Positions 30,966 to 43,947 of a stretch of DNA of 64,000 bases are shown here, piece after piece. The first letter of the stretch is position 1, and every line of letters starts with the position of its first letter. Origin of the DNA: Dictyostelium discoideum (taxonomy: Eukaryota). Made by a program: the position numbers and the translations under genes. The stretch spans positions 3,232,001 through 3,296,000 of the forward strand of contig CM000152.2 of assembly GCA_000004695.1 (NCBI GenBank), in the 5' to 3' direction. A model generated the notes under the pieces. The model did no database searches and was not told where the DNA came from. It saw nothing but the letters and a program-made list of their open reading frames with translations.

Positions 30966-31742
30966 ATGATAGATCTTTTCGATTTTGTAGTATTATCTTC
31001 ATTCATCATTCTTTTACCATTGGTAACTGATTTCCTTAATAATACATTTCCAAATGCAAAGATTGGTAGATTAGCACAAGAAGTTGTGGGCATGATATTG
31101 GTATTCTTTATTGTATCTTTAATATTTGCAGGAGTATCATTATGGTATACCCATTTCTTACCATTTTATTATACAAAATCATTATTAATAAGTTTTGATA
31201 CTTTAAATTTATTAGATCTATTAAAATTCATTAATACTGATAATAATAACAACAGTGGTAGCAGTATCTTCAATAAAATTACATTCTATTTTCACATTTT
31301 CTTTACAATTCAATTAGTTGTTAATTTATATTATTACTACTATCAAACTATAACTGCTGATAATTTCTTACCAAAAATTTCAAAAAATAAACAAATTCAA
31401 TTATTTGCTAGTGAGACAACTACAACAACAACAACAACAACTGATAATATTAATGAAAAAAAAAATAAACTTTGTGGTTTATGTGATCAAGTTAGTGATG
31501 GAAAATGGTCAACAATTAATAAACCGAAATCACATCATTGTAGAATTTGTAAACGTTGTATTGATTCAATGGATCATCATTGTCCATTTGCTGCAAATTG
31601 TATTGGTATAAATAATCATCATTATTTTATACTATTCATAGGTTATACTGTAATGGCATTAATTTATGCATGTTATTTATCATTCTTCCCATACTATCAT
31701 TGTATTGTAAATTATAAAAATTATGTTAGTTTATCTTTTACC

Positions 31743-31777
<35 letters not shown>

Positions 31778-32093
31778 TTTTAAACAATTAGCTCAATCAT
31801 GTGCAAAATTCAATAAATATAGTTTTATATTTTTATGTTGTTGTTTAATTGTAACTGCCTCATTTGGTATACTTTTATTTCAAACTTATTTAATCATTAC
31901 AAATTCAAAAACTGTTCAATTACTTAGTCGTTTAAAGAAATCAAAATCATTTTTAGATTGGTTTAAATGGTTATATCAAAATTTTAAACAAAATGCTTCC
32001 ATAAATAATATTTATTCACTTTTTCCAAATTTTAAATTTTATAATTTAATTATACCTTACTATAAAAGGAAAATAAATAAATTAAATAAATAA
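30966..32093 (+). CDS. DHHC-type protein S-acyltransferase (palmitoyltransferase), multi-pass membrane protein
   Basis: Single 375-aa ORF. TM helices flank the zinc-finger DHHC cysteine-rich domain CGLCDQVSDGKWSTINKPKSHHCRICKRCIDSMDHHCPFAANCIGINNHHYF. A-rich context precedes the ATG. Confidence 0.85.
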
Positions 32094-35523: not shown

Positions 35524-36116
35524 ATTGGGTGCTATTTTAATTTTCACATTATATTATTAGATAAAAATAAAAAAAAAAAAAAAATCTTAAAAAAAAAAAA
35601 AAAAGTCATCAAAATTATTCACCTAAAAACATAACATATAAACCCTCGGTTTCAAGGCAGAGGATGATTCACTTACAACAACAACAACAACAACCAACAA
35701 CAACAACAACAACCAACAACAACAACTAACAACAACAACAAATAATAATAATAATAAAAATAATAATAATAAATCCCCAATTGTGAAGTTGTGTTGAAAT
35801 TAATAAGAGTGGGAGGTTTATATCGCATCAATCACTTTTTTCTTTTCCTCAACTTCATATATAAAAAAAAGAAAAAAAAAAAAAAAAAAGAAAAAAAAAG
35901 AAATAATAAAAAAAATAAAAAAATAATAAACAAATAAAAAAACAAAAAAAAAAAAAAAAAAAACAAAACTAAATTAATTAATTTATTATTAATAATGTAA
36001 AAAAAAAATATATATATATTACAGTAGTTTATTTTAGTATACTAATTTAAGATCCAATTTTTTTAATAGACCTACTTTTTTTTTTATTTTTTTTTTACAT
36101 TTTTAAATTTATTTCT

Positions 36117-36169
<53 letters not shown>

Positions 36170-36191: not shown

Positions 36192-38890
36192 TTAAAAAGG
36201 AAAATATTTTACATAAAAGGCCACTTTTTGTATTTTCATTTGAATTGTTTTCATTAAATTTTTATCAGATCTCTTTTTAAACCAAATATATGTTGAGCCA
36301 GCCACAATAACTACAACAAATAAAATTGAGCAAATTATAATAGCAGCAATTTTAGAAGCACTCATTCCCGATTCATTATTATTTGAACAAATTGAATATG
36401 ATGATGATGAGATTTCTTTTGTATCTAAAAACATGGAAAAATCAGGATCAATAATAATTTGATTTTGGAAATAAGGAATATTAATACCAATAAATGCTTC
36501 ACGATAAGAAACATTATCATTTTTACTACCATCAATATTAGTATCAGATAAAGTTGATGAATCAAGTATTGAATTCTCTAATGTAATTATCTTTGTTGTG
36601 CTCTTTTAATAAATCTAGCATAAATTGAATGATTATCAATTTGAATTTTTAAATAATTTGAATTTTCTTCTTTTATAGTTTCACCAAATTCTTTAATTGA
36701 GCAAATGTTATTATTATTGTTATTGTCATCATCTGATGTTTTATTTATTATCATCATTGCTGAAATAATTAATTGAAGTCTATTTAATTTATTTTTAAAA
36801 TTATATTTTGATATTTCAATTGTGTATTTAATTGTTGATGGGTTCATTTTAATATCACTATTTGCAAATGAAATATTAGTTTTTCAAACCATTGTAATGT
36901 TATTGTTATATCAGTTGTTGAAATAATTGATTTAAAAAGTTTATTATTATTATTATATTTATTTGTTTGTTCGTCATTTATTTCAAATTCAATTGTAGGG
37001 TTTGAATCATTTTTTGAAGGTTGTGGAATTATTATAACTTTTGAAGAACAATCAATTCCAACCCATGGTGATTTACAAATACAACCATTATTTGTGCAAA
37101 CACCTTTGAGATATACCACCACATGGTTTATCATCTTTAAAACACTTTGATAATAGTAATGGAGTATATTGAAAACTTTTTAATAATGTAAATATTATAT
37201 CACCATCGTTTAATGTTAGATCATGGATTCCAAAACCTGCTACAATTTCACATTGAATTGTTGTTTCATTATATTGTATAATATTTATACATTGATTTGA
37301 ACCAATATCAATTGTTGAATTTTCAGATATATTACCAAAGAAACCATAAATAAATGTTAATCCACCATCAATAGTTGGGGATTTTACAGAATCAATATAT
37401 ATTTTAGAAATTTCACAATGGTCACCTTTGGTTTTAGAATCACATAAACATGAATTTGCTTCATATTCACCATGAGATGTACAATTACCAAAATCTTTTA
37501 AAATTGTGTATGATAGATCATTATCAGTGAATGTAACATTCTTTTCACCAAATTGAAGTATGTCAACTTGATAAACAATATTAAAATCATTTATTTGTTT
37601 TATATTATTACACTGTAATTCACCAATATGAATTGTACTTTCATTACTTATTGTTCCAAAGACACCATCCAATGATAATTTAATATTTTTGATTGTTGTT
37701 GAAAATTCTATTCTATCTATAACAATTAAAGATTTTTCACATAATTGACCACTAGTTTGAGTATCACATATACATTTATTTTGAGTTTTATTAAATGTTC
37801 CATGAGATGTACATGTTCCGAAATCATTTGAAAAATTAAATGACAAATCACCATCTGTATAACCAATAATTTGTCACCATATAAAGGTGTTGTTGTGCAT
37901 GAGACCAATATTGGACTGTGTTGCTTTATATTTTACAATCATAAGCGTTACCAATTTTAACAGTTGTTAACATTGGTGAAATGTATCCAAAGAATCCAAA
38001 AATTGATATATTATCTTCTTGAAAATATCTATAGTAATATACTTCCTTAATAATTATTTTTGAAGTTTCACACTGAGTACCATTGGTTTTTGAATCACAT
38101 AAACAACCACCACCATTATAATTACATACACCATGATTTGAACATCCATAATTACAATCACAAACTAATGAACTATAATATTCAATTTGGTATGTACATG
38201 TTTCAGCTTCTAATACTTCTGTTTTAGTAAATACTCCTCTATTTAGATCACAGATGAGGAAAAATTTCATTCTTCTTCTATTGGGTACGGGAGAGCCTGA
38301 ACAATCATTTCCACCTGTGGGGTCAAAATGATATGAACTGGTTATAATAGTCAATCCATTTTCAGGAAACTCTACAGAAAGTTATAACCAGTACACTTTC
38401 AATTTGGTAGCAATTTGATTGGTATGCACTGGAATATATATTTAGTGGCTTTCCCCTGGAAAACCATGACATTTATCAACTGTTACATTACAAAAATTAA
38501 ATTTATATAAACCATCACCACCATATGATAAATTTGAGGCAGCTGTCCAAGGATCAGAGGAATTTCTTAGTTTTTTATTTTTTATTTTTCATTTTTTATT
38601 TTTCATTTTTTATTTTTTTTTTTTATTTTTTTTTAGAATTGGAATTAATATTTTAATTTTTTCGATTCATAATTTTTAATATTTATTTATAGAATTGGAA
38701 TTCCAAAATTTGTATTATTATATTTTTTTACCTTTTTAATGGGGAGAGATCATATATGATTCCTTTATTTATATTATTATATAGACAGTTATTTTGACCA
38801 ATACATTTTATTATATTTAGGCTGGTTAAAAAAATAATAAAAATTAAATATTTATTTTTCATTTTTAATCTATTTATTTATTTATTTGTA
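36192..38890 (-). pseudogene. Disrupted gene for a type-I membrane protein with a signal peptide, an N-terminal Cys-containing domain, tandem EGF-like/Cys-rich repeat modules and a C-terminal TM plus short cytoplasmic tail
   Basis: The signal-peptide exon is intact: MKNKYLIFIIFLTSLNIIKCIGQNNCLYNNINKGIIYDLSPLKR|GTAAAA (~38760-38890). Exon 2 (acceptor ~38582) carries in-frame TAA stops (…CHGFPGESH*IYIPVHTNQIATKLKVYWL*LSVEFPENG…). The repeat region is split across ORFs 37926..38354, 37088..37846, 36844..37134, 36587..36847 and 36192..36434 in shifting frames, with an in-frame TGA (…NNTFIW*QIIGYTDGDLSF…). It has repeated modules DFGxCTSHG..(6-8)..C.CD..T.G..CE.S. The TM is IAAIIICSILFVVVIVAGSTYIWFKKRSDKN. 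There are at least 4 frameshifts and 3 stops without intron-like AT-rich sequence at the breaks. Confidence 0.6.
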
Positions 38891-43254: not shown

Positions 43255-43947
43255 TTATTCTTGATTAAATATTGTTTTACAAAATACTTTAAGATTTAAA
43301 TTATTATTTTCTTTTGAAGTACAACTGTTTGCAATGCTATAGGAAGTACAAGATTCTGGCCAATTGTTGTAATTGCAATATTGTTCGTATGGAGTGAGAT
43401 TTAAGAAAGCACAATAATAATTTTTAGTGACTGCTTCACCTTGTTTGAAAATTAAATTTGGTGTGAAAAATAATGAGAATAGTAAATTCAAAGATGAGCA
43501 ACCAGAATTTGTTTTTGAATGATATTCGAAAATTACTTGACCTTTGTTATAAAGTGGTTCGTTTGCAATTGTTACATAGGAGAAGGTTGTTTCATTTTGA
43601 GCATAGGTATAGTTTTCCATGGTGAAAAATGGATGACTGTAAGAGCATTCATTAAGACCATTTTTGAAAACATTGCTTGGACTATCACTACAATCATTGT
43701 TTTGATATTGTTGAGAAATTACTACATTATTTGTTTGATCATATGTGAATTTCCAATTTGTATTTTCTAAACCAATATCACCAACCGAACTAATACATTC
43801 ATTTAATAAAAATGAATATCCAATACCACTTTGTTGATCTGATGAACATTTTAAACTTGAATATGGTTGAAATGTAACATATCCTTGAGATTTAACTAAA
43901 TTAAATAATGAAATTGTTAAAATAATAAGAATAATAATAATTTTCAT
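43255..43947 (-). CDS. Secreted Cys-containing protein, 230 aa (hypothetical)
   Basis: Single ORF with a cleavable signal peptide MKIIIILIILTISLFNLVKSQ. It has about 14 Cys, N-glycosylation sequons (NYT, NET, NLT) and no TM. An A-run precedes the ATG. Confidence 0.6.
   Translation of the reverse strand: MKIIIILIILTISLFNLVKSQGYVTFQPYSSLKCSSDQQSGIGYSFLLNECISSVGDIGLENTNWKFTYDQTNNVVISQQYQNNDCSDSPSNVFKNGLNECSYSHPFFTMENYTYAQNETTFSYVTIANEPLYNKGQVIFEYHSKTNSGCSSLNLLFSLFFTPNLIFKQGEAVTKNYYCAFLNLTPYEQYCNYNNWPESCTSYSIANSCTSKENNNLNLKVFCKTIFNQE

Follow-up and report, generated by a model that had tools for sequence, protein, structure and literature searches.

Unitary pseudogenes are single-copy genes that have been disabled in place and whose orthologues are functional, as in the case of GULO in primates. 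The locus described here very probably belongs to this class: it lies in a stretch of 64,000 nucleotides (nt) of chromosome 3 of Dictyostelium discoideum AX4 (contig CM000152.2, positions 3,232,001 to 3,296,000; hereafter the window, whose numbering is used throughout) and has nearly every mark of a non-processed pseudogene of the ComC-supersandwich family, still at its ancestral position. ComC proteins are found in a dictyostelid-restricted family; they combine a signal peptide, EGF-like repeats, a DUF7949 unit followed by the supersandwich domain, and a single transmembrane helix. The comC gene, after which the supersandwich domain is named, bears the entry "Has EGF domains, S+T, only group 4" in PMC4931340, and a comC mutant displays an aberrant aggregation phenotype (PMC2873529).

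The product of the ancestral gene at this locus would have been a type-I membrane glycoprotein of the same family, about 880 amino acids (aa) long, presumably with a putative cell-surface role in adhesion, communication or recognition that was possibly glycan-dependent. In AX4, loss of function would have been followed by decay, for the most part through replication slippage and short deletions.

Gene structure and lesions of the AX4 copy

The pseudogene occupies positions 38862-36192 on the minus strand and retains the two-exon organization of a type-I membrane protein gene. The elements that can be recognized are the following:

38732..38862, minus strand: exon 1, with the ATG, a signal-peptide-like N-terminus (MKNKYLIFIIFLTSLNIIKCIGQ...) and the start of the MRH-like domain; intact
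38566..38731, minus strand: the only genuine intron, 166 nt, GTAAAA...CTAAG, 90% A+T, phase 2
38110..38565, minus strand: remains of the MRH-like domain, with an approximate 3' limit and frameshifts 1 and 2 inside
37091..37873, minus strand: longest remaining open stretch, 261 codons, with EGF-like, TIG, EGF-like and TIG modules
36282..36350, minus strand: transmembrane segment IAAIIICSILFVVVIVAGSTYIW, 23 hydrophobic residues, read from the sequence by eye

Exon 1 is conserved in ACTFIY, ACTFIR, ACTFIW, ACTFIZ and D. dimigraforme; its translation begins with MKNKYLIFIIFLTSLNIIKC... (MKNKYLIFIIFLTSLNIIKCIGQNNCLY...PLK), a signal-peptide-like start as judged by eye. The splice donor reads AAAAAG followed by GTAAAAAAAT, the acceptor side ends with ...CTAAG, and the phase-2 join of the two exons yields ...PLKR-NSSDPWTAAS...; the position of this intron is common to all aligned orthologues. 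A preliminary description of the window had pointed to a clean signal-peptide exon with a GTAAAA donor (here 38862-38732), to a preserved intron and acceptor geometry and to repeat modules, a transmembrane segment and a short basic tail that could still be recognized, and all these features are indeed present in AX4: the EGF-like modules (DFGxCTSHG...C.CD..T.G..CE.S) are readable, and the basic tail KKRSDKNLMK... directly follows the transmembrane segment.

Downstream of the intron, the AX4 coding signal jumps among all three frames. Lesions were called by DNA alignment of AX4 with ACTFIY, ACTFIR and ACTFIW, reading AX4 in the frame of the orthologues; according to the assembly labels, ACTFIR and ACTFIW are D. 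discoideum and ACTFIY is D. cf. discoideum, while ACTFIU, considered below, is D. citrinum. The AX4 copy carries eight frame-shifting indels and one in-frame deletion of 117 nt, in addition to a few in-frame indels of 3-6 nt:

38449/38448, minus strand: frameshift 1, -1, CCC to CC (GAAAGCCCAC to GAAAGCCAC) in a C run
~38387, minus strand: frameshift 2, net +1, a complex replaced patch at 38391-38375, AX4 GGTTATAACTTTCT versus orthologue AGAACCAGAAAG
37935/37934, minus strand: frameshift 3, -1, in an A run, TGTAAAAAT to TGTAAAAT, in the first TIG-like module
37875/37874, minus strand: frameshift 4, -1, AA to A, GGTGAACAA to GGTGACAA
37107, minus strand: frameshift 5, +1, AA to AAA, CTCAAGG to CTCAAAGG, just before DUF7949
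36923/36922, minus strand: in-frame deletion of 117 nt (39 codons) in the ComC supersandwich domain, between the near-repeats AAATCAATTATTTCAA and AAATCAAATATCTCAA
36883/36882, minus strand: frameshift 6, -4, GAAAAAGAAA to GAAAAA (TTTGAAAAAGAAACT to TTTGAAAAACT)
36600/36599, minus strand: frameshift 7, -10, loss of AATTGTTGAT within the ComC supersandwich domain
36221/36220, minus strand: frameshift 8, -2, in the last codons

The second frameshift brings back the reading frame lost at the first one, and the interval between them is free of stops in another frame, where it reads KPLNIYSSAYQSNCYQIESVL, matching SPLNIYSSACQSNYYQIGSVL of the orthologue; in the same way, the interval between frameshifts 3 and 4 reads NIKQHSPILVSCTTTPLYG in the third frame, as in the orthologues. 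At the opposite end of the gene, frameshift 8 replaces the ancestral terminus ...KVDLFM, with its stop at 36211-36209, by ...KVAFYVKYFPF, with a stop at 36194-36192. The three in-frame stops reported in the preliminary description proved to be out-of-frame stops located between or after frameshifts and not nonsense codons of the ancestral frame: the two TAA fall between the -1 at 38449/38448 and the +1 at ~38387, and the TGA comes after the -1 deletions at 37935/37934 and 37875/37874. Indeed, the orthologue alignment revealed no clear nonsense substitution in the ancestral frame of AX4, and at most one TAA, inside the patch 38391-38375, which is in frame or not depending on the alignment of the extra base. 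The frame changes that had been located at 37846/37926, 37088/37134, 36844/36847 and ~36590 are real, but they are an incomplete count of the eight frameshifts and the 117-nt deletion. The further claim that none of the breaks is intron-like holds, each frameshift being an indel of 1-10 nt relative to a continuous open reading frame (ORF) in the orthologues.

Real introns at the frame breaks were rejected on base composition and on homology to the coding sequence of the orthologues. Programmed ribosomal frameshifting or another form of recoding was also rejected, since none of the eight shifts, which go in both directions, is conserved in any orthologue, and the orthologues read through in one frame. 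In the patch 38375-38391, the changes AACC to GGTT and AGAAAG to CTTTCT resemble in-place reverse complements flanking ATAA, and the patch may represent a template-switch mutation; a simple micro-inversion was dropped, because the two halves are reverse-complemented in place separately and not as one block.

Most of the AX4 frameshifts seem to have arisen in short homopolymer or repeat contexts, and the 117-nt deletion would have occurred between near-repeats. Since the first frameshift already interrupts the MRH-like domain, at about codon 83, no meaningful product is expected from the signal-peptide exon onward.

Sequencing or assembly errors, such as homopolymer miscounts in a gene that is in reality intact, would offer a trivial explanation for the breaks, and five of the eight frameshifts do involve a single base, with the four outside the complex patch located in short C or A runs, a typical context for errors. 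This explanation is practically excluded, because a second assembly and a contig from a separate run are identical to the window and the neighbouring genes are clean. GCA_054883475.1, whose chromosome was separately assembled (6.43 Mb versus 6.36 Mb for the reference, with many indels in the flanks), matches the window from 39100 to 36000, across all the lesions, except that a poly(A) tract further downstream differs by 11 A's. The Logan contig SRR26869246_28989010 (1,075 nt), derived from a separate Sequence Read Archive (SRA) run, is 100% identical to window 37644-36570 and covers four lesions, namely three of the frameshifts (+1, -4 and -10) and the 117-nt deletion; moreover, deletions of 4, 10 and 117 nt are not homopolymer errors, and the neighbouring genes carry long clean ORFs in the same reference sequence. 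The poly(A) tract, of about 60 nt (window ~36105-36168), lies downstream of the pseudogene and is the sole difference from GCA_054883475.1 in 3.1 kb. Literature searches on new Dictyostelium assemblies and on SRR26869246 found nothing.

Orthologous loci and timing of the inactivation

The conceptually repaired AX4 protein matches its homologues in ACTFIR, ACTFIW and ACTFIY with E = 0 and 73-76% identity, and the D. dimigraforme homologue with 49% identity. The gene order is shared on both sides, one flank holding a CfaA_B_C-family gene plus a large one of about 1,050 aa, the other an Arf/Roc-type GTPase gene plus a DHHC gene, and the loci align to the window across about 20 kb with 72-89% nucleotide identity; the same neighbours together with this extended alignment identify them as positional orthologues. 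In the window itself, the flanking ORF at 43258-43947 on the minus strand is an exact match to the AX4 protein DDB_G0280333, and the one at 30966-32090 on the plus strand to AX4 ZDHHC8/Q54VH7. The window as a whole has an A+T content of about 78% and contains long homopolymer tracts, and a scan of it for tRNA genes found none.

The orthologous loci are found in very different states. Intact genes are present in ACTFIY (exon 1 and an uninterrupted second exon of 838 codons at L003 5276-7789), in the first copy of ACTFIZ (exon 1 and an ORF of 1055 codons) and in D. dimigraforme (exon 1 and 1284 open codons, with extra TIG-EGF modules); since the distant D. dimigraforme has the gene, absence and decay are the derived conditions. 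The ACTFIR gene is disabled by a CAA to TAA nonsense mutation in the second EGF module and has further lost 12 nt in frame and 2 nt in the tail, while the ACTFIW gene is disabled by a frame-shifting deletion of 161 nt just ahead of the transmembrane segment; none of these lesions is common to AX4 or shared between the two. In D. citrinum (ACTFIU) the interval matching window 39562-36014 has shrunk to about 650 bp, a relic in which the very end of exon 1 and the adjoining donor (CCATTAAAAAGGTAAA) can still be read, along with some 200 nt from the beginning of DUF7949/supersandwich (69% identity, E ~1e-13). Judging from the distribution of these lesions, the locus was inactivated independently at least four times, in AX4, ACTFIR, ACTFIW and D. 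citrinum. Finally, a second tandem copy in ACTFIZ (L007 19569-20692), located downstream of the intact one, is truncated at the 5' end and frameshifted at the A-rich site between WFEK and ET (TTTGAAAAAGAAAC), the same site as the 4-nt deletion of AX4, which suggests a slippage hot spot. Close relatives thus illustrate all the stages of gene death, from the intact gene through a single lesion and multiple lesions to a 650-bp relic.

The gene tree is ((AX4,(ACTFIR,ACTFIW)),ACTFIY), and the synonymous divergence (dS) is 0.10 between AX4 and ACTFIR and 0.19 between AX4 and ACTFIY. The ratio of non-synonymous to synonymous divergence, omega, is 0.31-0.42 between intact copies, indicating constraint on the gene wherever it has stayed intact, although the locus evolves much faster than the neighbour DDB_G0280333, for which omega is 0.06-0.15. 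A value of 0.23 between ACTFIR and ACTFIW suggests that these copies were constrained until recently, and the stem of the two has an omega of about 0.67. On the AX4 branch, 10 synonymous and 22 non-synonymous changes give an omega of about 0.5, counts that are too small to judge neutrality.

On the same branch there are about 10 deletions and 3 insertions, one Asn-codon microsatellite being excluded, together with about 51 substitutions unique to AX4. [quoted passage not shown] The decay of the AX4 copy, biased towards deletions and dominated by indels, therefore fits the spontaneous mutation spectrum of the organism. On the assumption that indels accumulated neutrally from the inactivation onward and not before, the 13 indels present over about 2.6 kb would represent roughly 10^8 cell generations, during which only some 6-7 neutral substitutions, a small fraction of those on the AX4 branch, would be expected; as about 6.4% of random substitutions produce nonsense codons, their absence is not surprising. 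The preliminary description had called the pseudogenization recent, and this is plausible in relative terms only, considering that the disabling lesions are all indels and that no clear nonsense codon occurs among the ~51 substitutions; on these estimates, the inactivation would nevertheless be far older than laboratory domestication.

This timing bears on the possibility that the disrupted allele is a polymorphism of the NC4/AX lineage, or of a part of the natural population, and that other isolates have an intact gene. An inactivation that looks late on the AX4 branch, with indels as the only disabling lesions and no clear nonsense, would suit such an allele, as would the rapid changes in gene status among relatives that are intact, or carry one or many lesions. 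However, at 4.93e-11 the eight frameshifts and the 117-nt deletion call for about 10^8 generations (calculated from PMC7466956), which far exceeds the laboratory history and is long for a segregating null allele, and ACTFIR and ACTFIW, at a dS of 0.07-0.10 from AX4, carry lesions of their own; a polymorphism therefore seems unlikely. It can be added that ACTFIR and ACTFIW differ from AX4 by a dS of 0.07-0.10 even in the constrained neighbour DDB_G0280333, and that nucleotide identity with AX4 is about 80-90% across about 20 kb, a divergence of species level rather than ordinary strain variation.

Repeated inactivation also invites an adaptive reading, in which loss of the receptor was favoured by selection, for example as an escape from a pathogen, a toxin or a social cheater that used it; the AX4 pseudogene would then be one case of convergent adaptive loss, for example of a glycan-binding surface receptor. 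The four or more independent inactivations with no shared lesion, the dead tandem duplicate in ACTFIZ and an omega of 0.5-0.65 at the locus, compared with 0.06-0.15 for the neighbouring gene, are in line with this proposal. Conversely, recurrent loss would be no less expected if the gene is a dispensable member of a large family with fast turnover (34 relatives), and omega is below 1 everywhere, with no sign of positive selection, so that adaptive loss has a low probability.

The lesions of the AX4 copy are real, and the ancestral intron and the syntenic position are both kept, with intact orthologues in related lineages; it is this combination that marks the locus as a probable unitary pseudogene. 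The proposal of the preliminary description, a pseudogenized member of a lineage-specific cell-surface family, is supported, as the lesions are reproduced and orthologues with the same module order are uninterrupted. The intact paralogue that it expected in the same genome did not turn up: protein-database searches returned no close AX4 paralogue, the only match being the mis-modelled product of the locus itself, and the intact copies are orthologues from sister lineages. Some points weigh against this interpretation. GCA_054883475.1 probably represents the same or a closely related laboratory lineage, and its agreement with the window excludes an assembly error but not a private mutation load; the AX4-branch omega of about 0.5 does not clearly indicate neutrality, nor does it clearly depart from the background of the family; residual transcription or a short product may exist at the locus; and it is from protein-database searches that the absence of a second functional copy in AX4 is drawn. 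Taken with the rest of the evidence, these points leave inactivation in place of a single-copy gene as by far the most probable history of the locus.

Public gene models of the locus

In public databases, the locus is represented by DDB_G0280395 (EAL67424, XP_641381, Q54VH4), a 433-aa "EGF-like domain-containing protein" listed as protein-coding; it was the sole AX4 protein returned by a profile search with the orthologues, and no mention of it was found by literature searches. The model has the following extent:

36590..38270, minus strand: DDB_G0280395 model, with pieces at ~38270-37953, 37717-37292, 37173-36892 and 36856-36590

If this model were correct, the locus would be a functional, shorter gene, with three real introns bridging the frame changes. 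Its presence in GenBank, RefSeq and UniProt, the fact that exon junctions can be drawn at GT...AG dinucleotides and the gene call, here of 698 aa, in the automated annotation of the second assembly all speak in its favour. However, the four pieces lie in three frames, and the "introns" between them (about 235, 118 and 35 nt) have an A+T content of 71-77%, close to that of the coding body (74%) and far from the 90% of the genuine intron; the sequence homologous to these "introns" is coding and without interruption in ACTFIY, ACTFIZ and D. dimigraforme, and one of the "introns" removes an entire EGF module. About 24 residues of the product (FFNILHYYYQSVLKMINHVVVYLK) are an out-of-frame translation relative to the orthologues; in addition, the model starts from an internal Met and lacks both the signal peptide and the transmembrane segment, although its domains are all of extracellular types, and it terminates at a stop after ...RAQQR that was created by a frameshift. 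The use of three frames, the coding-like "introns", the homology to the orthologues, the out-of-frame residues and the missing termini together identify the 433-aa model, as far as can be read from the DNA, as a gene-prediction artefact drawn over the pseudogene, and a functional gene of this shape is very improbable.

The Logan contig holds "introns" 2 and 3 of DDB_G0280395 in unspliced form, a possible further point against the model; if SRR26869246 is an RNA-seq run, the contig would show residual, unspliced transcription of the pseudogene. Exact-product look-ups of the ORF pieces gave no record for those of 252 aa and 80 aa, and only the 86-aa piece is recorded.

Similar problems affect the other annotations. 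The automated models checked were those at L002 14604-17750, L001 10001-12910, L004 4001-6871 and L003 4001-7792. The 698-aa model of GCA_054883475.1 resembles DDB_G0280395, and the models of ACTFIR (848 aa) and ACTFIW (765 aa) likewise splice around the lesions; the ACTFIY model skips the real signal-peptide exon (L003 4971-5102) and uses a spurious upstream first exon, MNEKPNEPNERVEHSEQLR. Since the models either splice around lesions or take spurious first exons, database proteins of this locus are unreliable at their ends and across the lesions. The reference proteome thus holds a chimeric, partly out-of-frame protein, an error that the recent 698-aa model repeats, and flagging DDB_G0280395 as a pseudogene would clear a false member from domain and orthology analyses.

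The ancestral protein and comparison with known systems

From N- to C-terminus, the protein has a signal peptide, an MRH-like domain, an EGF unit, three TIG-EGF modules, DUF7949, the ComC supersandwich domain, a transmembrane segment and a short tail. In Pfam searches, the AX4 pieces matched TIG with 29 bits (cutoff 20.9) and the EGF families weakly; DUF7949 (PF25820) scored 42.2 bits in AX4 (cutoff 27) and 42.6-46.5 bits in the orthologues, and ComC_SSD (PF22933) 33.3 bits in the AX4 fragment (cutoff 24) and 31.9-65.5 bits in the orthologues. The DUF7949 unit is immediately N-terminal of the supersandwich domain, the arrangement that characterizes the ComC family, and the type-I topology can be recognized by eye from the hydrophobic N-terminus, the 23-residue segment at 36350-36282 and the KKRSDK tail.

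The N-terminal domain, of about 160 residues, is more divergent. Two orthologue domains gave no Pfam match at E up to 10, including the MRH families CIMR, Man-6-P_recep and PRKCSH, and no relevant match was found among PDB sequences. Fold comparison of a predicted model of moderate confidence (pLDDT 61.5) revealed the flattened beta-barrel of the MRH fold; the domain is accordingly predicted to have this lectin fold, a new assignment for this ComC-like subfamily. In the family alignment, R121, E144 and Y150 are invariant; Q72, which is not itself listed as invariant, belongs to a conserved A-C-Q motif beside the invariant A71. The spacing of these Q, R, E and Y residues presumably resembles that of the Q-R-E-Y sugar-binding tetrad of OS-9, a likeness of spacing rather than of superposed residues. 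In UniProt, a D. firmibasis paralogue, P0033, bears the name "MRH domain-containing protein".

The family is large in group-4 dictyostelids: 34 relatives were retrieved when a D. dimigraforme paralogue served as the query of a protein search. Other members in AX4 are DDB_G0276851, DDB_G0269004 and DDB_G0289399, which are about 30-39% identical to the rest of the family. The length of DDB_G0276851 is 570 aa in AX4 and 606 aa in ACTFIT, while its 90%-identity cluster-mates in ACTFIW and ACTFIR are 861 and 866 aa long. Possibly, DDB_G0276851 is a further case of truncation or mis-modelling among the AX4 members of the family.

In comparison with known systems, the locus resembles ComC in the succession of DUF7949 and supersandwich, in the EGF-like repeats, the signal peptide and the single transmembrane helix, and in the restriction of the family to dictyostelids. 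It is, however, not comC itself, and no AX4 ComC protein turned up in the searches run; the ComC_SSD match is weak, 33-66 bits versus 201 bits for the D. dimigraforme paralogue P0005, and the AX4 copy is dead, with 39 codons of the supersandwich domain deleted. The likeness to the MRH lectins, namely CI-MPR, CD-MPR, OS-9/Yos9, glucosidase II beta and GNPTG, would lie in the R, E and Y that are invariant in the family of the locus and in the Q of its A-C-Q motif, and sugar binding is putative; the family differs from these lectins in that no sequence-profile match is obtained and in that the MRH-like domain is fused to an EGF/TIG/supersandwich ectodomain, an architecture that, to our knowledge, has not been described for MRH proteins.

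No major concept is changed by this locus, which is very probably an ordinary unitary pseudogene; its value lies in curation and in a modest comparison of recurrent loss. As in other unitary pseudogenes, such as GULO, the intron and the position are kept, the lesions are multiple, the orthologues are intact and no close copy has been detected in the genome. Two aspects set it apart: the decay of the AX4 copy consists almost entirely of indels, mirroring an indel-rich and deletion-biased mutation spectrum (PMC7466956), and several related lineages appear to have lost the same locus independently.

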